DNA from: an uncultured Gemmatimonadales bacterium
Lineage (GTDB): Bacteria > Gemmatimonadota > Gemmatimonadetes > Gemmatimonadales > GWC2-71-9
Direction of reading: 5' to 3'
DNA: 64,000 nt
Assembly: GCA_963704805.1 (NCBI GenBank)
Contig: CAVPHS010000001.1
Span: 594,496-658,495, forward strand
Every line of letters begins with the position of its first letter. The stretch's first letter is position 1. Below, piece by piece: positions 8,139 through 50,182 of the stretch. The notes under the pieces were generated by a model. The model was not told where the DNA came from, searched no databases, and saw only the letters and a list, made by a program, of their open reading frames with translations. The translations under genes and the position numbers were made by a program.

Positions 8139-8318
8139 CCAAAAGCAGGTCCTTCGCGCCTGCGAGAGAAGGGTTGTCTTGCCAAAAGCAGGTCCCTCGC
8201 GCCTGCGGCGCTCGGGATGACACGCGCGCTTACGCTTGTGAGGAAGAAGAAGTGTGAGAGAAGGGTTGTTTTGCCAAAAGCAGGTCCCTCGCGCCTGGCG
8301 GCGCTCGGGATGACACGC
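8139..8318. repeat. Family-B intergenic repeats (AAAGCAGGTCCYTCGC..CGCTCGGGATGAC), three tandem copies
   Basis: ccaaaagcaggtcc[c/t]tcgcgcctg occurs at ~8139, 8182 and 8272. Two copies are followed by gcgctcgggatgacacgc. Confidence 0.85.
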
Positions 8319-8365
8319 TCGCGGCCGTTATTGAATAAAAAAAGAGGATATGATGTCCTGCCCCG

Positions 8366-9024: not shown

Positions 9025-9095
9025 GCGTTTTTGCGGCACGAAGGGGCCTTTTTGCGGCAGGTCCCTCGCGCCTGCGGTGCTCTGGATGAACGCCT
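9025..9095. repeat. Family-B repeat copy
   Basis: tttgcggcaggtccctcgcgcctgcggtgctctggatgaacgc, preceded by a degenerate half copy. Confidence 0.7.
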
Positions 9096-9171
9096 CGCGC
9101 TGGTTCGCTGAAAGAGAAGGGAGGAAGAGGGTGATGAACGCCCGTTGACACCGCCGGAGTACCATCGCGCC

Positions 9172-9366
9172 ATGAAGAACGTTGCCGAGCGAGTCGAGGA
9201 CGCCATGAGGGAGGTGGGCACGCTTGTCATCGCGTTCGCGCCGCTCGATGCTGCATTCGCAGAGGGGGCCGAACGAGCCGGTCTTCTCTTGCTCTTCGCG
9301 ATCTACGGAGTACTGTTATTCGTGGGATCGTTGTGGCTTGAGAGGAGACGCTCACGTGACATTTGA
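9172..9366 (+). CDS. Small 2-TM membrane protein (module gene 1)
   Basis: MKNVAERVEDAMREVGTLVIAFAPLD...LLLLFAIYGVLLFVGSLWLERRR. Homologous by eye to 37656..37865. Confidence 0.5.
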   Translation: MKNVAERVEDAMREVGTLVIAFAPLDAAFAEGAERAGLLLLFAIYGVLLFVGSLWLERRRSRDI

Positions 9367-9484
9367 TCTTGCGTTGATCTATGGTGCTGCCCTGGGACTC
9401 TTGGCGCTGATCGGAATCCTGGTTGCGTTGCGTGAGATTCGGCGCGACGAGGCCCGCCGCCGTGCTGCGAAAGACCAGCCATAG
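9356..9484 (+). CDS. Small 1-TM peptide with basic tail (module gene 2)
   Basis: GTG preceded by GAGGAGA. VTFDLALIYGAALGLLALIGILVALREIRRDEARRRAAKDQP. Overlaps the gene 1 stop by 11 nt. Confidence 0.45.
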   Translation: MTFDLALIYGAALGLLALIGILVALREIRRDEARRRAAKDQP

Positions 9485-9497
9485 GGGGCGCGGGCTC

Positions 9498-9606
9498 GAA
9501 CAGCAGGTCCGTCGCTGCGCGCGCGTTCCGCGCGCTTCGCTCAGGATGACAGGTCGCGGTGTCTTCCAAAGCAGGTCCCTCGCGCCTGCGGCGCTCGGGA
9601 TGACAG
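9498..9606. repeat. Family-B repeats, two copies
   Basis: cagcaggtccgtcgc..cgctcaggatgacagg and caaagcaggtccctcgcgcctgcggcgctcgggatgacagg. Confidence 0.8.
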
Positions 9607-9649
9607 GCTTCGCGGCGGTTTCTTGAATAAAGAGAAAGACGGGGGTCCC

Positions 9650-9775
9650 ATGCCAAGTAATGATCTGGTGGCGTTTGGTGGGGTAGGGCTGCTCGGCCTT
9701 ATTGCGTTTCTGATCGATCTCTATCTGATCCGGCGCGACGAGGCCCGGCGGCGAGCGAATAGCGCGAAAGAGTAG
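9650..9775 (+). CDS. Small 1-TM peptide, paralogue of 9356..9484 (below ORF-track length cutoff)
   Basis: MPSNDLVAFGGVGLLGLIAFLIDLYLIRRDEARRRANSAKE shares the IRRDEARRRA tail motif with 9356..9484. Confidence 0.45.
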   Translation: MPSNDLVAFGGVGLLGLIAFLIDLYLIRRDEARRRANSAKE

Positions 9776-9796
9776 CTCCCGCCCGAGGAGCGCAGG

Positions 9797-10195
9797 CGGG
9801 TCGTCCACCGAAAGAGCCAGGTAGATCGCCGAACGCCCGTGCCGGTCCAACCGATGCGCGTGCTGGTGCACAAATTGTCCTAGTCGGCCCCGCCGATTAG
9901 GGGATATCCCCAGGAAATGTGCTGACCGGTCCACCCCGCGAGCACACTGATCCAACGAAGCAGCGCTCTGGTCCACGTCATCAGCAATCCCCTACGCGCG
10001 TTGTGCCTCCCGGTTCATCGCACAAACTCGCCGGTCCACAAAAACAGCGAGCGGTCCCGAGGATGCGAAACACTGCGACACGCAATGGGCGGACAGGTTT
10101 CGTCGCGGCATTTCTTGATTCCTCAAATTCGCGCGCCAAAAATTCCGCAGAGCGTCCTCATCCGGAGACAGCGTCGATTGGTCCGCGAGCACCGT
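9797..10195. repeat. 21-bp-phased array of GTCCAC-like hexamers
   Basis: GTCCAC at 9803, 9929, 9971 and 10034; GTCCGC at 10181. In-phase variants are GTCCAA 9845, GTGCAC 9866, ATCCAA 9950 and GTTCAT 10013. All offsets are exact multiples of 21. Confidence 0.75.
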
Positions 10196-10279
10196 GCACC
10201 GTGGCACGCGTTAGGCACACGCTCCCGAGCGTCGGGAGAAGTTCAACACACGACACGGATCCCGACGCCGTGTCATCAT

Positions 10280-10312
10280 CCCCTGACCCCCTCTCCGCAA
10301 GCGGAGAGGGGG
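10280..10312. repeat. Family-A palindromic element
   Basis: cccctgaccccctctccgcaagcggagaggggg, 22 nt upstream of the ATG at 10334. Confidence 0.85.
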
Positions 10313-10333
10313 AACGATGGGAGGGAGGTTTGT

Positions 10334-11020
10334 ATGAATGCCGTGGTACGCAGGCGGCTGGAAATGGCCGCGCGGGTCCGAGATTTCCTCCGGACCCACA
10401 AGACGGACGGAGTTGGTGAGGGGCTGGGACTCGCCAAGCTCGAGGAGCTCATCACGCGGGCGGAGGCGCTCGCGTCTCAGCAGCGGGGTGGTCAGGTCGC
10501 GACGCGGGCGGCGACGATGCAGCGCGCCGACATTCGCGAGCTGCTCAAGACCAAGCTACTCCGGTATCTGGTGGCGGTGGGCGCGGTGGCGGCGCGCGGG
10601 AATGTGGAGTTGTCGGCCCATTTCCGTCTGCCGCGCAAGTCCAGCCATCAGGCGTTCTTGACGGCTGCGCGTGGGATGCTGGACAAGGCGACCGCGCAGA
10701 AGGACGTCCTGGTGGGCGAAGGGATGTCGGCGACGTTGCTCGACGACCTCACCGCCAAGCTCGCAGAGTTCGAGAAGACGTTGGAGGCTTCGCGGGCGGG
10801 GCGGCGCGAGCATGTCGAGGCGAGCGCCGATCTCGAAGCCGTTGCCGCCGAGATCGCCGAGCGAGTACGGATGCTCGACGGGCTGGTGCGGTATCGGTTT
10901 GGGGACAACCCGGCGCTGATGGAAGGCTGGGCGAGCGCCCGGGATGTGCTGGGGCCGTTCCGGTCGAAGGCACCGCAGGAGCCAGAGGCCGGCGGTAGTG
11001 AGACGCCCAAGGCTGCATGA
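10334..11020 (+). CDS. Hypothetical all-alpha protein ('gene X'); its 3' end is repeated twice downstream
   Basis: ATG at 10334 (MNAVVRRRLEMAARVRDFL...). No family recognised. The ORF-track start at 10001 runs through a repeat and looks non-coding. Confidence 0.6.
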   Translation: MNAVVRRRLEMAARVRDFLRTHKTDGVGEGLGLAKLEELITRAEALASQQRGGQVATRAATMQRADIRELLKTKLLRYLVAVGAVAARGNVELSAHFRLPRKSSHQAFLTAARGMLDKATAQKDVLVGEGMSATLLDDLTAKLAEFEKTLEASRAGRREHVEASADLEAVAAEIAERVRMLDGLVRYRFGDNPALMEGWASARDVLGPFRSKAPQEPEAGGSETPKAA

Positions 11021-11032
11021 CGGCGGCTTAGG

Positions 11033-11072
11033 GGCGCGGCAGACTGATCACCTGCCGCGCCTTTGTCTTCTC
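11033..11072 (+). terminator. Intrinsic terminator of gene X
   Basis: 10-bp stem ggcgcggcag/ctgccgcgcc with a 9-nt loop, followed by tttgtcttctc. Confidence 0.6.
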
Positions 11073-11076
11073 AGAA

Positions 11077-12117
11077 CTAGTCCAAGACCGCGATTGTAAC
11101 ACCCACACTGCGGAACGAATCCATCGCTGCGAGCTCGGGGCCGACCTGCGACAGGGTGATCGTCTTTCCTAACAGTTTCTCAGGATGCAGGTGTCCCTTG
11201 GTTATCAAATCCAGCATCCCCACGTATTCCCTCGCCTGCAGCCCGTGCGTCCCTCTGATTTCGAGCTCCCGCGCGATCACCTGACTCATCGGCACGGGAG
11301 GATCGCTCTCACGGCCGAGGAGCAGTCCGACCTGGATGTGCCGTCCCCGCTTCCTGAGAGAAAGGATGGAATTGCGGCAGGTGGCGGGACTGCCGAGCGC
11401 ATCGATCGAGACATGGGCGCCGCCTCCCGTCACCTCCCGGATCGCGCCCGGCACATCCGCCACCTTCTGCGCGTCGATGACGATTTCGGCACCAGCACAC
11501 CGAGCCAGCTCGAGTTTCTCCGCGGTGATGTCGACGGCGATCACGCGTGCATCGAGAGCCCGCGCGATCATGGTGGTCGAGAGGCCAACGCCACCGCAGC
11601 CGTGCACGGCCACCCATTCGCCGGGCCGGGTTTGGCCCTGTCCGACGACGGCGCGGTACGCGGTCGCGAAACGGCACCCGAGCAATGCGGCGGTCGTGAA
11701 GGCCATGGCATCGGGGAGCCGCACCAGGTTCAGGTCGGCATAGGGGAGGGCGACGTACTCCGCGAAGCTGCCCCAGCCCGTGAAGCCCGGCTGGTAGTAG
11801 CGATCGCAGATCTGCTCGTCGCCCGCGCGGCAACGCTCGCACGAGCCGCATCCCATCGAGAAGGGGACGGTAATGCGGTCGCCCTGCTTCCATTTGCGTA
11901 CGGCGTTGCCCGTTGCGACCACCGTGCCGGCGAACTCGTGTCCAGGGACGTGTGGCACTTTGACGTCGGCGTCGTGGCCCTTCCATCCGTGCCAGTCGGA
12001 GCGGCAGAGTCCCGAGGCGCCGACTCTTATAACGACGCCGTCGGGGGTCGGCGTGGGATCGGGTACGTCGACTAGGCGAAGCGGGCCTTCGAATTGATCG
12101 TAGCGAACCGCTTTCAT
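11077..12117 (-). CDS. Zinc-binding alcohol dehydrogenase (MDR family)
   Basis: GLCRSDWHGWKG, GHEFAGTVVATG, the structural-Zn Cys cluster GCGSCERC and VHGCGGVGLS. Confidence 0.85.
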   Translation of the reverse strand: MKAVRYDQFEGPLRLVDVPDPTPTPDGVVIRVGASGLCRSDWHGWKGHDADVKVPHVPGHEFAGTVVATGNAVRKWKQGDRITVPFSMGCGSCERCRAGDEQICDRYYQPGFTGWGSFAEYVALPYADLNLVRLPDAMAFTTAALLGCRFATAYRAVVGQGQTRPGEWVAVHGCGGVGLSTTMIARALDARVIAVDITAEKLELARCAGAEIVIDAQKVADVPGAIREVTGGGAHVSIDALGSPATCRNSILSLRKRGRHIQVGLLLGRESDPPVPMSQVIARELEIRGTHGLQAREYVGMLDLITKGHLHPEKLLGKTITLSQVGPELAAMDSFRSVGVTIAVLD

Positions 12118-12205
12118 GTCGGGTGAATCTTACGTAAAAGCAGATCCCGCGCCGCACTTCCGCAGCCCTCATGGGTTCGCTCTATTCCACCGGCAATTCG
12201 CTCCA

Positions 12206-13921
12206 ATGGCCGTGGATTCCCCAGTGAACGCTATGTCTCTTCCTTCTGCCCAAGCGGAGCTTGAGCAATGGCGCGCGGTTCGCGCTGTCGTTCTCGCTCG
12301 CGACTCGCACATTTGCAGGGCTTGCGGCGAAACATGCTCTCAGGGCGAAGCCGACGTTCATCATCTGATTCCCCGTGCCGCCGGTGGGGTCGATGACCCC
12401 GCCAACCTGATCACACTGTGCGATGGCTGTCATGCTGCGCACCATCCGAACCTTCAAGGTACGCTTGCTCGCCGGATGATAGAGCGCTGGGGATTGAGGC
12501 TGGCTAGGGCACTGGATTTCCGGCACGAGTTGGCTGGCGTTGATGAATCGCTCGGCGCGGCGATGCGGCTGCTTGGAGTTACCCATCTCCGCACTCCCCA
12601 GCTAGACGTGATTCTCGCGGCCCTCCGAGGCGAGTCACTCCTTCTCGTCAGCGCGACCGGCTCTGGAAAGTCGCTCTGTTTTCAGGTGCCAATCCTGTTA
12701 ACGCGCGGGTGCGGGTTCGTGATTTCACCGTTGAAGGCGCTCATGAGCCAGCAGGTGGCCGACCTTACGATGAGAAAGGTCCCGGGCACCTTCATCAACG
12801 GTGACCTTGGCCCGCACGAAAAGGAGATCCGGTACCAACTGCTAAGGGATGGCGCAATCAAGTTCCTGTATTGCACGCCGGAGCGCTTCGATCCGAGAAT
12901 GGTTCGCCAGGCTGAAGTGGACGAGATCACTGGTACCCGGCCGGCCTACTTGGTGATCGACGAAGCGCATTGCATCGATCGTTGGGGAAATGACTTCCGC
13001 CCGAACTACGGCAAGTTGGGTGCAATTCGCCAGGCGCTTGGCAGCCCGCCGGTGTTGGCGTTCACCGCCACGGCCGGAACGCAGGGCCAGCGCCGCATTC
13101 TCGAATCGCTCGGCATACCAAACGCTCGCGTAGTGGTGACCGGGGTGAACCGACCGAACATCAAGTTCGTCCGTCTGCCGAACATGAAGGACAAGGTGCG
13201 GTTTTCCCTGATCATGAACCTCCTCAGGGTCATGCCGCATGGTCGTGCCATGTTGTTCGTGCCCACGGTCAACACCGGAAAGCAGCTCCAGGAGGGCCTT
13301 CGCTCGGTGGGATTAGACCTTCCCTTCTTCCACTCCAAACTCGGTACGGCTAACGACCGCGACATGCTGCTGGGCCAGTTCACGGGCCGCGTCGACCCGC
13401 CCGTGAGAGTCGTCATCTGTACCAATGCTTTCGGCATGGGACTCGATTTGCCCGACGTTCGACTCGTGGTTCACTGGCAGCATCCCGCGTCACCGGAAGA
13501 CTACCTTCAGGAATTCGGACGCGCTGGTCGGGATGGCAAGCCTTCGGTCGCTGTCATGTTCACAGCAGAGAGCGACGAAGGATTGCTCAGGTTCATGGCG
13601 GAGAAGACATCCGAGATGGCAGTCGACGACGCGTCCAAGGCCTCGGTGCTCGAAGCCAAGCTCGAAGCAATCAAGGAAATGCGGCGCATTGCGACGTCGA
13701 GAGGCGTCTGCGTTCGCAACAATATCGTCCAGTACTTTGGGGAAATGCCTTCGCCTCGGCGTAGAAGCATCGCCGTACGAATTGCGGAATGGGTGCTCTC
13801 ACGGTCCGTCCGTCTCCGACGAACCCGATTCTGCTGTGACCGGTGCGATCAGGTGAATGTCGACGATGTCGACGACGTCATCGCTTGGGCCGTCGGGGTT
13901 TTTGCACAGGAGGGTAGGTAG
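12206..13921 (+). CDS. HNH endonuclease domain fused to RecQ-family DEAH helicase
   Basis: HNH: CRACGE..DVHHLIPRAAGG..NLITLCDGCHAAHH. Helicase: SATGSGKSLCFQ, VIDEAHCIDRWGNDFRPNY, FTATA, RQLQEFGRAGRDG-like and a Zn-binding CCDRCD tail. Start uncertain (12116, 12206 or 12233). Confidence 0.75.
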   Translation: MAVDSPVNAMSLPSAQAELEQWRAVRAVVLARDSHICRACGETCSQGEADVHHLIPRAAGGVDDPANLITLCDGCHAAHHPNLQGTLARRMIERWGLRLARALDFRHELAGVDESLGAAMRLLGVTHLRTPQLDVILAALRGESLLLVSATGSGKSLCFQVPILLTRGCGFVISPLKALMSQQVADLTMRKVPGTFINGDLGPHEKEIRYQLLRDGAIKFLYCTPERFDPRMVRQAEVDEITGTRPAYLVIDEAHCIDRWGNDFRPNYGKLGAIRQALGSPPVLAFTATAGTQGQRRILESLGIPNARVVVTGVNRPNIKFVRLPNMKDKVRFSLIMNLLRVMPHGRAMLFVPTVNTGKQLQEGLRSVGLDLPFFHSKLGTANDRDMLLGQFTGRVDPPVRVVICTNAFGMGLDLPDVRLVVHWQHPASPEDYLQEFGRAGRDGKPSVAVMFTAESDEGLLRFMAEKTSEMAVDDASKASVLEAKLEAIKEMRRIATSRGVCVRNNIVQYFGEMPSPRRRSIAVRIAEWVLSRSVRLRRTRFCCDRCDQVNVDDVDDVIAWAVGVFAQEGR

Positions 13922-13938
13922 GATTAGGAGCTAACACG

Positions 13939-14245
13939 TTGGAGGCTTCACGGGCGGGGCGGCGCGAGCATGTGGAGGCGAGCGCCGATCTCGAGGCCGT
14001 GGCCGCCGAGATCGCCGAACGCGTCAGGAGCTCGACGGGCTGGTGCGGTATCGGTTAGGGGACAACGCGGCGCTGATGGAAGGCTGGTCGAGCGCTCGGG
14101 ATCCTTTGCTGCGCTCAGGACGAGTTGTGTTGGGACCGTTCCGGTCGAAGGCAGCGCAGGAGCCCGAGGCCGGCGGTAGTGAGACGCCGAAGGCTGCATG
14201 ACGGCGGCTTAGGGGCGCGGCAGACTGATCACCTGCCGTGCCATT
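13939..14245 (+). pseudogene. Degenerate duplicate of the 3' end plus terminator of gene X
   Basis: Aligns by eye to 10781-11065, from ttggaggcttc[g/a]cgggcggggcggcgcgagcatgt to ggctgcatgacggcggcttaggggcgcggcagactgatcacctgccg. It has indels and a ~30-nt insert. Confidence 0.8.
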
Positions 14246-17766: not shown

Positions 17767-17794
17767 GGTTAGTGTTAGGTCTTGTGGAGATCGC

Positions 17795-17953
17795 CGAGCA
17801 GCTGCGGCTGCTCGGAGGGGCCTGTGCGGTGTCGGGTTCGGGATAGCGTCGACCTGATGGAGGCGTGGGCCAGCGCGCGGAATGTGCTGCGGCCGTTGAA
17901 GCCGAAGGGGCGGCTCGAAGACAGGTGGTGGTGAAAGGCCGAAGGCGGCGTGA
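17795..17953 (+). pseudogene. Third, more diverged 3' fragment of a gene-X homologue
   Basis: EIAEQLRLL..VDLMEAWASARNVLRPLKPKG parallels EIAERVRMLDGLVRYRFGDNPALMEGWASARDVLGPFRSKA of gene X. Confidence 0.6.
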
Positions 17954-20652: not shown

Positions 20653-20872
20653 GAGCGTGGTGCTGTCTCATACGATCTACCCGCGATCGGCATTGGAATC
20701 GGCGCGGTCAGCCTTTGCGGGGCTGTGTGACATCGATGTACGGAGTGACGGAGCGGATGTGCGTGTAACGATATCGGCCCGGGATGGCGCGCCCCTTGAA
20801 GCGGTTGATGAGTTCCTGTCATACGTGCTCTCGGCGGCGATTGAGTCTCACCTCGCCAGCTCGACTCAATGA
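20642..20872 (+). CDS. Second HxsD-like small protein (diverged paralogue)
   Basis: VVLSHTIYPRSALESARSAFAGLCDIDVRSDGADVRVTI..AVDEFLSYVLSAAIE parallels the N-terminal two-thirds of 20308..20652. Its start overlaps the previous stop, and its stop overlaps the next ATG (ATGA). Confidence 0.5.
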   Translation: MRGRSVVLSHTIYPRSALESARSAFAGLCDIDVRSDGADVRVTISARDGAPLEAVDEFLSYVLSAAIESHLASSTQ

Positions 20873-22365
20873 CGAAGGTGGTCTTTCATCCTCCCGCTCG
20901 CTATGCCGGGCCTGGGGACTATGAGCTTTTGCCATTTCGCTTCATTGATCTGGACGATCGCAAGGTCGTCGTCAACGAAGTCGGCGAGTACGAACTGCTC
21001 GACCAGAACGCGTTCCAGCAGTTCGTAAGACACTCGCTCTCTCCGACCTCGGACACCTATCGCAACCTCAAGGCCAAGCATTTCCTCCGGGACCCAGAGT
21101 CGTTGGTCCCGCTTAGACTTCTGTCCACCAAATACAGGACCAAGCGCGCGTTTCTAGAGGGGTTTACTAGGCTCCACATCTTCGTCGTCACGCTGCGGTG
21201 CGATCACTCCTGTCACTATTGCCAGGTGTCGCGCGTCAGCATGAACCGCTCAAAGTACGACATGTCACCAGAGTCCGCGCGAGCGGCGCTCGATTGGGTG
21301 TTTCGCTCCCCCTCCCGATATCTCAAGATCGAATTCCAAGGCGGCGAGCCGCTGCTCAATATCGAGCTCATCAGAGACATTACAGAGGAGGCGAAGCGGC
21401 GGGCCGTGGCCTCGGAGAAAGAGGTTGAGTTCGTCGTGGCAACGAACCTTTCCTTCCTGAGCGACGACATTCTGGCGTTCCTGAAGGCGCATAACATCGG
21501 CATCTCGACATCCCTCGATGGGCCCGCATTCATCCACAACGTCAACCGCCCTCGGCCTGGTAATGACGCTCACGAAACGACGGTGCGCGGCATAGCCCGG
21601 GCGCGAGCAGCCCTCGGACGGGGTGCTGTTTCAGCCTTGATGACAACGACACGGCTGAGTCTTGAGCATCCCGAGGCGATCGTGGATGAATACATCAAGC
21701 AAGGTTTTGACCGAATCTTCCTGCGCCCCATCAGTCCGTATGGGTTTGCGGTGCGGACGCAGCAGAAGACCGGCTATGACGTGCAGGCCTTCCTGGAGTT
21801 CTACAAACGCGCGTTAGATCGAGTGATTGCGATCAATCGGAGCGGCAAATGGATGGTCGAGATCTACGCGCGCATTTTGCTGACAAAAATCCTGACTCCC
21901 TTCGCTACAGGCTATGTCGACCTGCAATCGCCGGCTGGCGCTGGAGTTAGCGTTGCGGTCTACAGCTACGATGGCGACGTCTATGCAACGGACGAATCGC
22001 GGATGCTCGCCGAGATGGGCGACCGCACCTTTCGTTTAGGCAACGTTCATTCGAACAGTTATGAAGAGGTGTTCGGCGGTCCACTGCTGAGGTCCCTCGT
22101 CGCGGCCTCCTGTGTCGAGTCCCTTCCCGGTTGCTCAGACTGTGCATTCCAAACCTTTTGCGGCGCGGATCCCGTGGAAAACTACGCCACCCAGGGGGAT
22201 GTCTTCGGCCATCGACCGACGAGTCGCTTCTGTGCTCGGAATATGGAGATCATCAGGCATCTACTCCGTCTATACCACAGCGGAGATGCGTTCATTCAAC
22301 AGTTGTTTTGGAGCTGGGTCGAAAACGTGCCGGTGGATTCCCTTACGGAACGCTTACCAAACTAA
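20869..22365 (+). CDS. hxsB: Radical SAM/SPASM maturase (HxsB-like)
   Basis: CDHSCHYCQ (CxxxCxxC) and GGEPLL. C-terminal Cys-rich SPASM-like region CVESLPGCSDCAFQTFCGADP. Confidence 0.8.
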   Translation: MTKVVFHPPARYAGPGDYELLPFRFIDLDDRKVVVNEVGEYELLDQNAFQQFVRHSLSPTSDTYRNLKAKHFLRDPESLVPLRLLSTKYRTKRAFLEGFTRLHIFVVTLRCDHSCHYCQVSRVSMNRSKYDMSPESARAALDWVFRSPSRYLKIEFQGGEPLLNIELIRDITEEAKRRAVASEKEVEFVVATNLSFLSDDILAFLKAHNIGISTSLDGPAFIHNVNRPRPGNDAHETTVRGIARARAALGRGAVSALMTTTRLSLEHPEAIVDEYIKQGFDRIFLRPISPYGFAVRTQQKTGYDVQAFLEFYKRALDRVIAINRSGKWMVEIYARILLTKILTPFATGYVDLQSPAGAGVSVAVYSYDGDVYATDESRMLAEMGDRTFRLGNVHSNSYEEVFGGPLLRSLVAASCVESLPGCSDCAFQTFCGADPVENYATQGDVFGHRPTSRFCARNMEIIRHLLRLYHSGDAFIQQLFWSWVENVPVDSLTERLPN

Positions 22366-22367
22366 CG

Positions 22368-23585
22368 ATGCGCTTATGGTCAGCTGGGCAGGCACACGGC
22401 ATCACGCGGCCAGTGCTGGGCAGAGTTACGACGCAGCCAGTACCCGAGGGCGAACGTCACGACTTCATCGCGTATGGGAGCGAAACCGAGCTAGCCCGTT
22501 TCGGACCTGAGCTCGCTCGCTATCCGGGTGTCCTGTGTCGCGGCTCCCTGGGCGCCATCCCCAAGACAGCGGTCATTCATTCGGCCCCCCATCTGGAATA
22601 CTTGTCTGATGGTGACGTCGTTCGACTGTCGCCGGACGGAACGATCAACGTGCTGTATCGGCGCTCTTCACACTACAACACGATTCTCACCACGGAGCGC
22701 TGCAACAGTTTCTGCCTGATGTGTTCGCAGCCACCCAAACCAGCGGACGACTCATACCGCGTTGCCATGATTCTGCGCCTGCTCGAGCTCATCGACCTAG
22801 AGGCGATCGAATTGATCATCAGCGGCGGTGAACCAACGCTCCTGGGCGGACGCTTTCTGGATATCATCGAGAAAGCCAGGGTGACCCTGCCAAGGACAGC
22901 CCTGCACGTTTTGACGAACGGTCGGCACTTCAAGAGCAAAGACTTTGCACGTCGCCTCGCGGATATCGATCACCATGATTTGATGCTGGGCATTCCGCTC
23001 TACTCCGACATTCCCGAACTGCACGACTACGTCGTCCAAGCGTCCAATGCGTTTGATGAGACGCTCGAAGGGTTCTACAACCTGGCGGCGACAGGAGTGC
23101 GGCTGGAGCTACGTGTTGTTTTGCATAAACAAACCTGCGAACGCCTACCCCGACTGGCTGAGTTCGTGACCCGGAATCTCCCTTTCGTCGAGCACGTCGC
23201 ACTCATGGGGCTCGAGATGTTCGGGTTCACTCCGCGTAATCTGGACGTGCTGTGGATCGACCCTGCAGACTACGCGCCGCAACTCGAAGAGGCCACTTTG
23301 ACGTTGGCCACGAGAGGAATGAACGTTTCGATCTACAATCATCAGCTCTGCACGATTCCGCGATCGCTCTGGCCGTACGCACGAAAGTCCATATCTGACT
23401 GGAAGAATGTGTACCTGGACGTCTGCGCTTCGTGTGGAGTGAAGGACTTCTGCGGTGGATTCTTCCAGTCTGCGACCAAGAAGCACAGCGCTCACATAGC
23501 GCCCTGTGCGGCGTTAACAGGCAGGGCACTTAACTACATGCGCAAGCTCCACAGCCTGGATTCCGCTGCGACGCGGGTGAACTAA
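22368..23585 (+). CDS. hxsC: Radical SAM protein (HxsC-like)
   Basis: CNSFCLMCSQ (CxxxCxxC) and SGGEPTLL. C-terminal CASCGVKDFCGG. ATG lies 3 nt after the HxsB stop. The listed start at 22131 overlaps hxsB and is rejected. Confidence 0.75.
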   Translation: MRLWSAGQAHGITRPVLGRVTTQPVPEGERHDFIAYGSETELARFGPELARYPGVLCRGSLGAIPKTAVIHSAPHLEYLSDGDVVRLSPDGTINVLYRRSSHYNTILTTERCNSFCLMCSQPPKPADDSYRVAMILRLLELIDLEAIELIISGGEPTLLGGRFLDIIEKARVTLPRTALHVLTNGRHFKSKDFARRLADIDHHDLMLGIPLYSDIPELHDYVVQASNAFDETLEGFYNLAATGVRLELRVVLHKQTCERLPRLAEFVTRNLPFVEHVALMGLEMFGFTPRNLDVLWIDPADYAPQLEEATLTLATRGMNVSIYNHQLCTIPRSLWPYARKSISDWKNVYLDVCASCGVKDFCGGFFQSATKKHSAHIAPCAALTGRALNYMRKLHSLDSAATRVN

Positions 23586-29911: not shown

Positions 29912-30319
29912 CACACACCCCGCCATAATCGTGTACGCACAATATGCATACGGTATCCGTATGGCGCGACTCGGATCACTAAAACGCGGGCGGTGTCGCA
30001 CCGGCGCCGTATCGTCGTGGCAATGACAAAAACCGAGCGCTGGCTCAACCTCCTCGCCTTCCTCCTCGACCGCCACTACCCGGCCTCGCGCGAGGAGATT
30101 CTGAGCCAGGTCTCAGACTACAAAGAGGACTGGGTCGGCGGCGACGCGCGCGCGCGCGAGACGGTCCGCCGCAAGTTCGAACGCGACAAGAAGGAGCTGA
30201 AGGACCTCGGCGTCACGCTCGAGCCGCTGAAAGAGAAGATCCTCGCGGATCACGCAGATCAGGAAGTCGAAGCCTACCAGCTCAAGCCTCGCGATTTCTA
30301 TCTACCCTATCTCAGCGTT

Positions 30320-30370
30320 CCCCCTCTCCGGGAACGGAGAGGGGGTCAGGGGGTGAGGACGGGGGTGAGG
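30320..30370. repeat. Family-A palindromic element with double GGGGGTGAGG tail
   Basis: ccccctctccgggaacggagagggggtcagggggtgaggacgggggtgagg. In frame, encoding PPLRERRGGQGVRTGVR. Confidence 0.85.
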
Positions 30371-30726
30371 CCCTATTTCTTGAACGAGGTCGCGCTCTCA
30401 TCAGATGATCTCCCCGTTCTCCGTCGCGCCGCCGAGCGCATCGCCGCGCTCACCGATACGCCCCTCGGCACCGCTGCACGCTCGGCGATCCGCAAGCTGT
30501 CGTTCGATCTTCCGGAGCTGAACGTCGGTTCCGAAGAGCGAGCCTTCACGGCACCCGCCGAGGTCGACGCCCAGTTCGCGATTCTGCGACAGGCGGTCGA
30601 ATCGCGGCGGGCGGTCCGCTGCCGCTACTACTCGATTCGACGCGACGTAGAGGGCGAGCGGGTGATCGAGCCGTACGGACTGATGCTGTCGTGGGGACAT
30701 TGGTACTGCGTCGCCCGTCTCGCGCC

Positions 30727-30756
30727 CTGGCCCCCTCTCCGCACGCGGAGAGGGGG
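30727..30756. repeat. Family-A palindromic element (core only)
   Basis: ctggccccctctccgcacgcggagaggggg inside the WYL domain coding region. Confidence 0.8.
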
Positions 30757-31167
30757 ACGATCGAGTGCGGGTGTTCCGGCTCGATCGCATGAAGGACGTC
30801 CATATAGTAGAAGGGGAGCAGGGCGAGTTCACCGTGCCCAAGGGCTTCAAGATCGCGAGCTACCTGAACCGCGCCCCGTGGGAGCTGTCCGACGAGAAGC
30901 CGGTCACGGCGCGCGTGCGCATCAACTTCCCGCAGTCGCGCTGGGTCATCGGCGAGCGGCTCGGCAAGGTCGTCAAAGCGGTGACCGACGACGCCGGCAG
31001 CGAGTTCGAATTCGAGGTCCGCGCCGTCGATGCCTTCGTGCGCTGGCTGCTCCCGCTCGGCAAGCAGGTCGAAGTCCTTTCGCCAACCGTCGATCAAGAA
31101 ACAGCTCGACGAAGCTCGCGCGGCACCGGGCTCTGCACGCGCACACGCACCACGCCCACGCACCTAG

Positions 31168-39527: not shown

Positions 39528-39652
39528 GTCATCCCGAGCGCCGTTTGGCGCGCAGCGCCAAGGCGCGAGGGACCTGCTTTTGGATCCATCGCCAACTACA
39601 AAAGCAGGTCCCTCGCTCCGCGCGCCTACGGCGCGCTTCGCTCGGGATGACA
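39528..39652. repeat. Family-B repeats, two inverted copies forming a large hairpin
   Basis: gtcatcccgagcg...gagggacctgctttt and acaaaagcaggtccctcgc...cgctcgggatgacat. Confidence 0.85.
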
Positions 39653-44217: not shown

Positions 44218-44272
44218 ACAAGCAGGTCCTTCGCTACGCGCGCGTTCCGCGCGCTCCGCTCAGGATGACAGG
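44218..44272. repeat. Family-B repeat
   Basis: acaagcaggtccttcgctacgcgcgcgttccgcgcgctccgctcaggatgacagg. Confidence 0.8.
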
Positions 44273-44314
44273 CTCGCTCCCTTAACGAGAAAGAAATGAA
44301 AAAGATGACGCGCG

Positions 44315-47750: not shown

Positions 47751-47892
47751 ACAAAAGCAGGTCCTTCGCGCCTTCGGCGCTCAGGATGACAAGCGCGCTT
47801 GCTTCTCTTTTCTTTTTTTTCAAAAACAAGCAACAGCTTGTCATCCTGAGCGGAGCGCGCGGTACGCGCGCGTAGCGAAGGACCTGCTTTTC
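47751..47892. repeat. Family-B repeats, inverted pair flanking a T/A-rich spacer
   Basis: acaaaagcaggtccttcgcgccttcggcgctcaggatgacaag ... cttgtcatcctgagcggagcgcgcggtacgcgcgcgtagcgaaggacctgctttt. Confidence 0.85.
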
Positions 47893-47903
47893 AGTGACAG
47901 GGC

Positions 47904-49223
47904 TCATGACGTGGCCTCGGAGCTTCCCATCCGCGCCGGTTCAAGTCGCGGCGCCAGCAAGTGAATGATCGTCCAGGCCGTGATGTAGGCAAAGCCGCAG
48001 ACGGCGAAGATCGACGCGTAGTTGCCTCCGGTGGCGTCGAGAATCCGGCCGGTGAGCCACTGGAACAGCACGCCGCCCATGGCGCCGGCGAAACCGCCGA
48101 TGCCGGAGACGGACGCCACGGCGCTCGGCGGGAACATGTCGCTCGCGAGCGTATAGACGTTGGCCGACCAGCCCTGGTGCGCGGCGGCCGCGAGGCTGAC
48201 GATGAGCACCGCCGTCCACAGGCTGCCCGCGCGCGGCGCCAGCGCCGTGGGCACGATCGCGAGAGCCATCAGCAACATCGCCGTCTTGCGGGCGCGGTTC
48301 ACGGTCCAGCCGCGTTTGAGCAGGCCGCTCGACAGCCAACCCCCGCCGATCGACCCGACATCGGCGATCACATACACCGTAATAAGAGGAAGGGCGACCT
48401 GGGCGAGCTTGATGCCGTACGTCGCATCCAGAAACTTCGGGAGCCAGTACAGATAGAACCACCAGACCGGGTCGGCGAGGAACTTGCCGGCGACGATCGC
48501 CCAGGTTTGGCGGAAAGAGAGAAGCCGAAGCCATGGCACCCGGGGCGGGGCCCCGAAGTCCTCACCCCCTGGCCCCCTCTCCGTTCCGGAGAGGGGGGAC
48601 GCAGGGCTGCGGTACAATACGAGCCACAGGAACAGCCAGAGGAAGCCAAGCGAACCGGTGACGACGAACGCCCAGCGCCAGCCCCACGTCAGCGCGATCC
48701 ACGGAACGACGAGCGGCGTGAGGATCGCGCCGGTGTTGGTGCCGGCGTTGAAGATGCCCGTGGCCAGGGCGCGCTCATCCTTGGGGAACCACTCGCCCAC
48801 GCTTTTGATGGCGCCGGGGAAGTTGGCCGACTCGCCCAGGCCGAGCAGCGCGCGCGCGGCCGAGAAGGCGGCGGTGGTGCGGGCGAGGGCATGGCCGATC
48901 GCCGCCAGGCTCCATACGACAACCGCCGTGGCGAAGCCGCGGCGCACGCCCACGCGGTCGAGCCAGCGCCCGGCGATCAGGAAGCCGAACGCGTACACCA
49001 GGGTGAACGAGTAGACCACGGCCGCGTACTGCGACTCCGACCAGCTCAGCTCGCGCTGTAACGTCGGCGCGAGGATGCTGAGCACCTGCCGGTCCATGTA
49101 GTTGATCGTGGTGACGAGGAACAGCAGCGCGCAGATCGTCCAGCGGTACGGCGGCCTCACCCCCTGGCCCCCTCTCCCTTCGGGAGAGGGGGGACGCGGG
49201 GCGGGGGACGAGTCGAGCGACAT
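47904..49223 (-). CDS. MFS transporter, hexuronate-transporter (ExuT)-like, with two in-frame family-A insertions
   Basis: LFLVTTINYMDRQVLSILAP and GRWLDRVGVRRGF. Insert peptides are PPSPEGRGGQGVRPP (N-terminus) and SPLSGTERGPGGED (central loop). Confidence 0.8.
   Translation of the reverse strand: MSLDSSPAPRPPSPEGRGGQGVRPPYRWTICALLFLVTTINYMDRQVLSILAPTLQRELSWSESQYAAVVYSFTLVYAFGFLIAGRWLDRVGVRRGFATAVVVWSLAAIGHALARTTAAFSAARALLGLGESANFPGAIKSVGEWFPKDERALATGIFNAGTNTGAILTPLVVPWIALTWGWRWAFVVTGSLGFLWLFLWLVLYRSPASPLSGTERGPGGEDFGAPPRVPWLRLLSFRQTWAIVAGKFLADPVWWFYLYWLPKFLDATYGIKLAQVALPLITVYVIADVGSIGGGWLSSGLLKRGWTVNRARKTAMLLMALAIVPTALAPRAGSLWTAVLIVSLAAAAHQGWSANVYTLASDMFPPSAVASVSGIGGFAGAMGGVLFQWLTGRILDATGGNYASIFAVCGFAYITAWTIIHLLAPRLEPARMGSSEATS
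48560..48598. repeat. Family-A palindromic element
   Basis: cctcaccccctggccccctctccgttccggagagggggg. Confidence 0.85.
49155..49193. repeat. Family-A palindromic element
   Basis: cctcaccccctggccccctctcccttcgggagagggggg. Confidence 0.85.
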
Positions 49224-49254: not shown

Positions 49255-50182
49255 ATGACTACTCGCAGGGAGTTTCTCGCAACCGCCGCCGCACTCGCCC
49301 TTACGTTCCCCCTCTCCGGAACGGAGAGGGGGTCAGGGGGTGAGGACTGGAGCGGGGGTGAGGCTGCCGCTCGGCTTCTCAACGCTTGGTTGCCCGACCT
49401 GGCCCTGGTCCGAGATTCTCGACTTCGCGGCCGAGCACCAGTTCGCCTCGATCGAGCTACGCGGGATCCTCGAGAACATGGATCTCACTAAAGTGCCCGA
49501 GCTCGCGCCCGATCGTTTGGGCGAGGCGAAACGGCAGCTCGCGGCCCACGGGCTGGTGGTGTCGTGCCTCGGCGCGTCGGCGCAGATGCACGACATGGAC
49601 CCGGTCAAGCATGCCGCGCAGCTCGACGAGGCGCGCCGCTTCATCGATCTCGCCCAGGCGCTCGGCGCCCCGTACGTGAGGGTATTCGGGAACGAGTACG
49701 TGAAGGATGTGCCGCGCGACGAGATGCTCGCGCACATCGCGGGCGCGCTGCACGCGCTCGGCGACTACGCCAAGCCGAAGAACGTCACGGTCGTCATCGA
49801 GTCGCACGGCGACTTCACCGACTCGCCGGCGTTGCTCGAGATCCTCCAGAAAGCGGACTCATCCAACGTGGCGCTGCTCTGGGATGCGCATCACACGTTC
49901 GTGTCGGGCAAGGAGGAGCCGGAGGACACGGTGCGCCAGCTCGGCCGCTACATCCGGCACGTGCATCTGAAAGACTCGGTCCCCGCCGGCAACGACCGCC
50001 GCTACGTGCTCACGGGCACCGGCCAGGTCCCGGTGAAACGACAGATCGAAGCGCTCGTGAAGCTCGGGTACCGCGGCTACTACAATTTCGAGTGGGAGAA
50101 GCGCTGGCATCCGGAGATCGAGGCTCCCGAGGTCGCGTTTGCGCAGTATGCCACAGTCGCGGCGCAGTATTTAGGCAGGTAG
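49255..50182 (+). pseudogene. Xylose-isomerase-like TIM-barrel protein; Tat signal and catalytic domain are in different frames across a family-A element
   Basis: MTTRREFLATAAALALT starts at 49255 (49102 frame). RLPLGFSTLGCPTWPW...IELRG..YVRVFG..HLKD is in the 49340 frame. Confidence 0.7.
49308..49363. repeat. Family-A palindromic element with double GGGGGTGAGG tail
   Basis: ccccctctccggaacggagagggggtcagggggtgaggactggagcgggggtgagg. Confidence 0.85.

Follow-up and report, generated by a model that had tools for sequence, protein, structure and literature searches.

Upstream of a 228-aa open reading frame (ORF), here called gene X, in a 64,000-nt stretch of DNA from an uncultured Gemmatimonadales bacterium (contig CAVPHS010000001.1; the whole stretch is termed the window, and coordinates are 1-based within it), GTCCAC-like hexamers recur in a 21-bp phase. 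These in-phase hexamers are the best-kept cores of a worn, non-coding 21-bp tandem array that lies upstream of a sigma-54-type promoter. Specifically, the window array is an old, degenerate member of its subfamily, with units built on GGTCCAC cores, and it has counterparts before homologues of gene X in related genomes and metagenomes (loci labelled L001 and so on). From left to right, the array and the features that follow it are given below.

9797–10065, + strand: degenerate tandem array, ~13 units each 21 bp long (from phase, autocorrelation and shuffles)
9803, 9845, 9866, 9929, 9950, 9971, 10013 and 10034, + strand: YYGGTCCAC-like unit cores (from phase)
9824, 9887–9908 and 9992, + strand: units whose core is lost (from the array register)
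9893–9918, no strand assigned: nearly invariant element GATTAGGGGATATCCCCAGGAAAT with a perfect 12-bp palindrome, GGGGATATCCCC, at 9900–9911, in phase within the array
10070–10109, + strand: non-repeat block ACACTGCGACACGCAATGGGCGGACAGGTTTCGTCGCGGC, conserved, which separates the array from the proximal inverted repeat (from orthologue alignments)
10154–10169, no strand assigned: proximal inverted repeat GTCCTC-ATCC-GGAGAC, a subfamily variant of GTCCTC-N4-GAGGAC common to close orthologues
10187–10193, + strand: conserved GAGCAC(G/C) motif, GAGCACC in the window, with GTCCGC at 10181 just before it (from alignments)
10202–10217, + strand: sigma-54-type promoter TGGCACG-CGTT-AGGCA (TGGCACGCGTTAGGCA), with GG at 10203-4 and GC at 10215-6 (from TGG-N10-GC at the homologous place)
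10229–10274, + strand: conserved 5′ leader, with GCGTCGGGAGA at 10229-39 and hairpin arms GACACGG and CCGTGTC at 10252-74 (conserved in most loci)
10334–11020, + strand: gene X, 228 aa, with the Shine-Dalgarno sequence GGAGGGAGG upstream; an all-helical bundle of no known family (from the ORF, a structural model and searches)

The original prediction had placed GTCCAC at 9803, 9929, 9971 and 10034, GTCCGC at 10181 and degenerate copies at 9845, 9866, 9950 and 10013, and had stated that all offsets between them are multiples of 21. On rechecking, all of these positions proved correct, the degenerate copies reading GTCCAA (9845), GTGCAC (9866), ATCCAA (9950) and GTTCAT (10013), and every hexamer falls at phase 0 modulo 21 relative to 9803. 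Autocorrelation of 9797–10195, a check that had been suggested at the time, gives peaks at lags of 21, 42, 63, 84, 105 and 126 (z of 2.8–3.8), with no other lag prominent in this interval. The periodicity statistic over the same bases is 0.135, as compared with −0.0002 ± 0.012 in dinucleotide shuffles (z = 11), and none of 2000 dinucleotide-preserving shuffles reached the observed value. When periods from 5 to 60 are compared, 21/42 ranks best, and a sliding scan of the 64-kb window places its top 21/42/63 signal at 9717–10079. Moreover, GGTCCAC with one mismatch allowed is found at seven positions, all in a single phase. With 22 plus-strand copies of GTCCAC in the window as a whole, 0.08 would be expected in 232 bp, where four are observed.

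Written out in rows of 21 from 9797, the sequence also bears out the preceding YYG and trailing AGC that several units had been said to share, the rows giving a contiguous YYGGTCCAC, then some seven bases that vary, then a weak AGC. Cores have been retained within this degenerate array and spacers randomised. Tandem Repeats Finder, when run on the region, did not detect the array because its units are only ~39% alike. With respect to GTCCGC at 10181, its earlier inclusion in the array stands as far as phase is concerned, but the hexamer lies outside the array proper, in the block between the inverted repeat and the promoter; the 21-bp register does continue across this region in relatives.

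Twenty-one base pairs are also seven codons, and one minus-strand frame of the window, with a single stop, reads x-V/L-D-Q/R every seven residues. On these grounds the array had been suggested to be the relic of a heptad-repeat protein gene, and a relic or live copy of such a gene is the first alternative to be weighed. The stop noted at 9992–9994 is indeed present in that frame, and each of the six frames across 9797–10195 contains at least one stop, the minus-strand heptad frame having one. Among relatives, whose arrays are much cleaner than that of the window, 5 of the 18 long arrays (≥180 bp) are interrupted by stops in each of the six frames, and the L057 frame corresponding to the Asp frame has one stop per unit. 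Autocorrelation reveals no 3-base periodicity beside the 21-base one, the top lags including no multiples of 3 other than multiples of 21, and the conserved columns form one contiguous block rather than falling at each third base. No gene is called in the region, which is left intergenic, and the homologous regions of relatives encode no intact annotated protein, which the original prediction had held out as a trivial source of the periodicity. The heptad-gene explanation is close to refuted, and we give it a negligible probability.

The labels iteron and centromere had likewise been offered, and the length and number of the units do resemble those of plasmid iterons (17–22 bp) and of centromere repeat arrays. 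The labels misfit, however, in that the array is chromosomal and always accompanies the gene X family, lying upstream of it, and numbers six or more copies per genome, with six gene X loci on different contigs of one metagenome-assembled genome. Pfam matches of the neighbouring genes include no rep, parA or parB, no gene family recurs beside gene X that might encode an array-specific binder (neighbours vary by locus), and no relatives were found on viral contigs. Plasmid-type iterons or a partition centromere are effectively refuted by copy number and context, and we see next to no prospect of either being correct. A clustered regularly interspaced short palindromic repeat (CRISPR) array was also considered and rejected, as the 21-bp (or 63-bp) units stand head to tail without unique spacers; no cas genes were seen.

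Conserved architecture upstream of gene X homologues

The original prediction had proposed that the array be sought in related genomes, and it was found there. Loci were gathered from genomes (62) and metagenomes (80), and in a first set of 49 upstream regions the lags 21, 42 and 63 were the top autocorrelation lags in ~45. To keep out any contribution from codon periodicity, the array score sets lags 21 and 42 against lags 18, 24, 39 and 45; its threshold is passed by 77% of 98 loci in the upstream interval (−650 to −150), as compared with 1% of control flanks. From −3000 to +3400 of the start codon the profile of this score is flat at zero save between −600 and −200, where 44–56% of windows lie above threshold. 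Many of the relatives' arrays are nearly perfect, with 15–26 units, and those of L017, L030 and L053 contain 63-bp higher-order repeats. An array of 21 units precedes the gene in L061, a 36%-identical paralogue.

Downstream of the array, almost all loci present the same elements in the same order, namely a GTCCTC-N4-GAGGAC palindrome, GAGCACG, a TGGCCCGATTTACGCA box, GCGTCGGGAGA, a leader hairpin and a Shine-Dalgarno sequence. The palindrome is present in 85 of the 102 loci that have at least 350 bp upstream, and since its sequence is conserved, and not merely its pairing, it is more suggestive of a dimer bound to DNA than of a hairpin in RNA. The proximal inverted repeat of the window is the candidate activator site (upstream activating sequence). 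The distance from the start of the palindrome to the TGG of the −24 element is 46–48 or 55–58 bp, two classes that lie one helical turn apart.

In terms of the promoter itself, TGG-N10-GC occurs at the homologous place in 50 of 85 loci, as compared with 14% of shuffles, and in the box consensus TGGCCCGATTTACGCA G7 is invariant and C6 is found in 46 of the 50. The conserved pattern, TGGCnCG-N4-nCGCA, sits at a fixed distance from the conserved palindrome. Promoters recognized by sigma-54 have the consensus TGGCACG-N4-TTGCW, and the box, with its GG-N10-GC spacing and TGGCACG-type left half, matches this consensus. A sigma-54 activator gene lies beside gene X in four loci (L070 3367–4341, L130 1–807, L104 1625–2377 and L094 1670–1873). 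It encodes a short, PspF-like protein of 324 aa, with an AAA+ domain and, at its C terminus, a helix-turn-helix (HTH), no receiver domain, and EGAFTDA in place of GAFTGA, and is a candidate regulator of the gene X family.

About 30 loci carry, at the far side of the array, a pair of GTCCTC sites 20 bp apart, located 357/377, 378/398, 399/419 or 421/441 bp upstream of the proximal half-site. Exact GTCCTC on the plus strand of the upstream regions is observed 28 times where 4.9 are expected (31 loci). The distances from distal GTCCTC to the proximal half-site, most of them 350–441 bp, are 0 or 20 modulo 21 in 55 of 83 cases. Loci with the distal pair span at least eight lineages, with proteins down to 45% identical (median 73%), and one lineage of at least 85% identity includes distances of 357, 376–378, 396–399 and 421. 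That the units themselves are degenerate GTCCTC half-sites was also considered; this holds for the bracket sites and weakly for the units, for which the one-mismatch enrichment is slight.

With the loci lined up on the palindrome, no break in the 21-bp register is seen between it and the distal pair. Of 77 loci, 63 have the array in the same register relative to the palindrome, to within 1 bp (z = 47 as compared with random registers). A column-specific unit consensus, G..GACCGCG....A.A, persists over the 77 loci. Its pooled core, GACCGC in columns 4–9, occupies the column of the outer distal GTCCTC, with G.CC.C in common. The whole stretch from the distal sites to the promoter is held in one helical register. 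The standard layout of the family is two distal GTCCTC sites, ~17–20 units of 21 bp, the proximal palindrome, 47 or 57 bp, and a sigma-54 −24/−12 promoter.

The GATTAGGGGATATCCCCAGGAAAT element stands apart from the units among which it lies. It is kept in L070, L007, L004, L071, L075, L077, L079, L080, L120 and L124, where the flanking units are variable, and related TAGGGG..CCCC elements occur in L011, L014 and L033. It is probably a separate protein-binding site.

Length change, sequence drift and the proposed role

The window locus was aligned to its orthologues. L071, whose gene X protein is 89% identical to that of the window over aligned residues, aligns in one ungapped block of 401 bp (9833–10233) at 74% identity. 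L075, L077, L079, L080 and L124 show a gap of exactly 84 bp, joining core 9928 to 10012, and some of them have a 21-bp gap as well. The gaps of L120 in the array are 63 and 21 bp, and those of L070 are two of 21 bp plus one compensated 7/8-bp pair. Within 9833–10070, this compensated pair is the only departure from gaps of 21, 63 or 84 bp, and in the same comparisons the adjacent 5′ leader has indels of 1, 6 and 19 bp. In a phase-variable (contingency) promoter repeat, a change in unit number would alter promoter spacing or phase and thereby switch expression. Unit number does vary here between close orthologues, but each step amounts to two full turns and lies upstream of the activator site, so that phase is kept and not changed.

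We propose, at about even probability, that the array is a phased enhancer- or operator-like control element of the sigma-54 promoter of gene X. The original prediction had observed that 21 bp is two helical turns, as would suit an operator-like array on one face of the DNA; this part of it is favoured by the promoter, the shared register and the indels in multiples of 21, the iteron and centromere labels being the part that fell away. The strong GTCCTC sites would be bound by a regulator, for which a PspF-like sigma-54 activator is the most plausible candidate. In one variant (a), the regulator would spread cooperatively over weak sites that lie two helical turns apart on one DNA face, nucleated at the strong sites. 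In the other (b), an in-phase loop or bend of ~400 bp would bridge the distal and proximal sites, with the repeats as a phase-neutral spacer. Either variant would determine how strongly gene X is transcribed with sigma-54. Protein binding to the units, the identity of that protein and the effect on transcription are what we infer from the observed array, its non-coding nature, the promoter and palindrome motifs, their shared register, the 21-bp length steps and the indels in multiples of 21.

Several observations weigh against a control element of this kind. Identity of the array between orthologues, at 0.74–0.77, is close to that of the four-fold degenerate sites of gene X (0.78, L071). Stronger purifying selection on cores than on spacers was tested between orthologues and is not seen, the column identities being 0.717 and 0.710, respectively. 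Because cores equal spacers and both change at near the four-fold rate, sequence-specific recognition of each unit does not follow from these comparisons. Unit sequences vary widely between paralogues, and GTCCTC with one mismatch is only mildly enriched in arrays (102 vs 90 and 138 vs 100). Roughly one locus in four does not reach the array threshold, most such loci keeping a palindrome-like repeat and a promoter. L050 and L051, two paralogues of 47–48% identity, have no 21-bp periodicity, the palindrome-like repeat and a promoter-like box again being retained. The distal pair of L071 is 3–4 bp out of the main register, and the activator gene is adjacent in only four loci and is not found in the window. 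Finally, the loci are related by descent, so that counts across them are not independent; the keeping of register over such divergence is nonetheless itself the point.

Taken together, indels in multiples of 21 and near-synonymous substitution imply that helical phase and length are constrained and sequence hardly so. With regard to the two variants of the proposed control element, near-neutral substitution and equal core and spacer rates favour the loop or spacer of variant (b), or very weak sites, and the repetitiveness, the repeated homogenisation and the shared column consensus favour the cooperative weak sites of variant (a).

The same data bear on the alternative that the units are not individually bound at all, and that the array is a phase-keeping spacer or curved DNA that sets a distance of ~400 bp and a helical phase, or sums small bends. 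Selection on such a spacer would pass length changes of 21 bp alone and would leave unit sequence free to differ between paralogues, in keeping with near-neutral substitution at cores and spacers alike while indels come in multiples of 21, and with a distal–proximal distance that shifts in 21-bp steps over a narrow range. A plain spacer need not repeat, yet the arrays have been repeatedly homogenised, as in the 63-bp repeats of L017, L030 and L053; the consensus G..GACCGCG....A.A persists over 77 loci; and the window array has kept its cores among randomised spacers. We regard a pure spacer or curved DNA as unlikely.

A neutral minisatellite, that is, a slippage-prone repeat upstream of gene X that is copied along with it and has no function of its own, would likewise account for the near-synonymous substitution rate, for copy number that varies between close orthologues and for the loci without an array. 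We consider this explanation rather improbable, in that the array persists in place in most of ~100 loci, down to paralogues of 36–45% identity (L061), its length stays within 17–21 units, its register is tied to the palindrome, and 400 bp at 26% divergence contain zero small indels, which the neighbouring leader does have.

Transcription of the array, in a small RNA or a long leader that might serve, for example, as a protein sponge with one site per 21 nt, would be in keeping with a region that is long, positionally conserved and non-coding, and with the purine-rich boundary at its left end. The array, however, lies upstream of the sole recognisable promoter, and no sigma-70-like promoter or terminator was found around it. 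Rfam gives no match in the window nor in 10 relatives, no tRNAs were found, and the predicted RNA folding of the array is ordinary on both strands (z = −0.26 and +0.20). Nor would such a transcript explain why indels come in steps of 21 or why the register is tied to a palindrome in the DNA, and we hold it to be very improbable.

Returning to the phased control element, these loci may tentatively be taken as a new type of Gemmatimonadales enhancer, a suggestion that we make with somewhat less than even confidence. Such an enhancer would be a minisatellite of ~400 bp, with ~19 units and a 21-bp period, bracketed by GTCCTC and coated or looped by a sigma-54 activator. It would gain and lose whole units, drift almost freely in sequence, and control a multicopy family of helical proteins, which are often found at the edges of defence or accessory islands.

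Gene X and its flanks

The confidently predicted structure of the gene X protein, with a predicted local distance difference test (pLDDT) score of 84, is an all-helical bundle with two helices of ~60 residues. Searches of Pfam, PADLOC and PDB sequences gave nothing significant, fold searches gave nothing convincing, and weak, sub-threshold similarity to the NCBIfam 'PQLLE family' is the single hint of function. At least 977 homologues exist, essentially all from Gemmatimonadales soil metagenomes, and the gene is multicopy in Gemmatimonadales. A weak 21-nt periodicity is also seen inside the coding sequence, at about +300 to +560 in many loci (L009 3222–3566, L049 3299–3564; score 0.03 vs 0 elsewhere), and is probably the heptad pattern of the long helices.

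Three further features flank or interrupt the region upstream of the gene.

9544–9646, + strand: left boundary of the module, with elements like repetitive extragenic palindromes (REP-like elements) and a purine-rich AGAGAAAGACG tract, homologous to DNA just upstream of the L071 distal GTCCTC pair
9647–9832, + strand: replacement segment of ~192 bp with a small membrane-peptide ORF (ATG at 9651, to 9775), from the L071 comparison
10280–10316, no strand assigned: dispersed hairpin repeat CCCCTGACCCCCTCTCCGC..GCGGAGAGGGGGAAC (also given as CCCCTCTCCGC..GCGGAGAGGGG), inserted in the leader (from other copies)

Homology to L071 covers 9544–9646 and is found again from 9833 onwards. In L071 the counterpart of 9647–9832 is 147 bp long and holds seven units, among them those with the distal pair of GTCCTC sites. 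The window copy therefore has no distal bracket and, with its distal sites replaced, may be regulated differently or less well. Within the replacement segment, 9727–9756 repeats 9436–9465. Two small paralogous ORFs on the plus strand, at 9224–9484 and 9651–9775, encode single-pass membrane peptides ending IRRDEARRRA. The dispersed REP-like element, ...GCAGGTCC.TCGCGCCTGCGGCGCTCGGGATGACAGG..., is present at 9501–9631, 8142–8339, 9057–9105, 39554–39652, 44221–44277 and 47754–47888, and it also stands at the left edge of the L071 gene X module.

Within the leader, the crossing pairings CGTCGGG/CCCGACG and GACACGG/CCGTGTC at 10229–10274 are conserved in most loci, and would be alternative hairpins or a pseudoknot. 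Other copies of the leader hairpin repeat lie at 30310–30360, 30725–30761, 48558–48601, 49157–49205 and 49304–49347, and many other gene X loci have one or two copies at the equivalent leader site.

Downstream of gene X, a partial copy of its 3′ end, including the stop codon and a terminator-like hairpin, lies at 13933–14245 (86% DNA identity to 10775–11064), and a second, weaker one at 17787–17953 (72%). The first stands directly after a helicase gene, so that the dehydrogenase and helicase genes (11077–13921) are bracketed by direct repeats of the gene X end. Such bracketing suggests either insertion of accessory DNA at the 3′ end of the gene or decay of gene X copies that stood in tandem. 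The helicase, a 601-aa HNH plus RecQ-like protein (12116–13921, + strand), matches the PADLOC model DpdF (E = 8e-181), part of a defence system that acts through 7-deazaguanine modification of DNA. Elsewhere, TIR and MmeI-like genes (L069) or SocA/Panacea (L004) come after gene X, and queC/D/E-like genes precede it in L001. No integrase was found in the adjacent accessory region of the window, of which the stretch at 12–28 kb has a G+C fraction of 0.53–0.61, lower than elsewhere. Two adjacent or overlapping radical-SAM ORFs lie in this stretch (20869–23585), beside a beta-lactamase-fold gene, a trypsin-like protease, and DUF3761 and DUF4236 proteins.

Comparison with known systems

A close parallel to the phased array is provided by phosphorylated BvgA (BvgA~P) at the Bordetella promoters Pfha and Pptx, where head-to-head dimers bind every 22 bp, that is, every two helical turns, on one face of the DNA (PMC7250471). 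Up to six consecutive sites are occupied, most of them weak and without consensus features, with nucleation from the most upstream site, and deletions of whole 22-bp units keep phase (PMC7250471). The arrays described here resemble those of BvgA in a period of about two helical turns (21 bp), in sites that would lie on one face, and in a register common to the palindrome. They differ in having ~13–20 units over ~400 bp, as compared with 3–6, and in their sigma-54-type promoter, such that the array does not abut a −35 box. A possible counterpart of the strong distal nucleating site of BvgA is the distal pair of exact GTCCTC sites in ~30 relatives, which is replaced in the window.

With respect to sigma-54 promoters, the NorR enhancer of Escherichia coli norVW comprises three sites in 66 bp, ~21–24 bp apart and all needed, and extra flanking DNA stabilises the active NorR oligomer (PMC2831303). 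A sigma-54 promoter with several adjacent sites ~21–24 bp apart, putative at gene X, is common to both systems. Whereas NorR has three clearly conserved inverted repeats, GT-N7-AC, at gene X one palindrome and two distal half-sites bracket poorly conserved units.

The pspA-pspF system of enterobacteria offers a parallel for the gene and its putative regulator. There, a helical protein of ~225 aa is expressed from a sigma-54 promoter, and the activator, of ~325 aa, has an AAA+ domain and an HTH and no receiver domain. Gene X likewise encodes a helical protein of similar size behind a sigma-54-type promoter, sometimes with a short, receiver-less activator gene adjacent. Gene X, however, has no match to the PspA/IM30 Pfam family or among solved structures, and the psp enhancer consists of two sites and an IHF site, with no repeat array.

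Two further systems share features of layout. At oriC, arrays of low-affinity DnaA sites are bracketed by high-affinity boxes, and these end anchors order the filling of the weak sites; with a replication origin, a single copy, and another protein and spacing, the likeness is one of analogy only. Plasmid iterons and partition-site repeats are ~20-bp direct repeats in runs of 5–20, whereas the present arrays have no replication or partition gene, are chromosomal and multicopy, and are tied to a promoter.

Phased activator arrays and multi-site sigma-54 enhancers are already known. Few bacterial control regions have more than a handful of phased sites, and long-range sigma-54 enhancers usually have two or three. 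In the literature on such arrays in Gemmatimonadetes, or on 21-bp repeats at sigma-54 promoters, no description was found. What is apparently undescribed is an array of 13–26 units and ~400 bp that changes in 21-bp steps, is bracketed by half-sites, and is conserved across a gene family of an order. It marks a large uncharacterised gene family in a widespread, little-studied soil phylum, and this family may be an insertion point for accessory islands. It also represents a bacterial minisatellite in which only length changes by whole helical turns pass the filter. This one architecture exists in more than 100 natural variants, which differ in unit sequence and number and have period, register and overall length in common, and which constitute a natural experiment on the effect of helical phase, site number and weak-site affinity on enhancer-dependent transcription.

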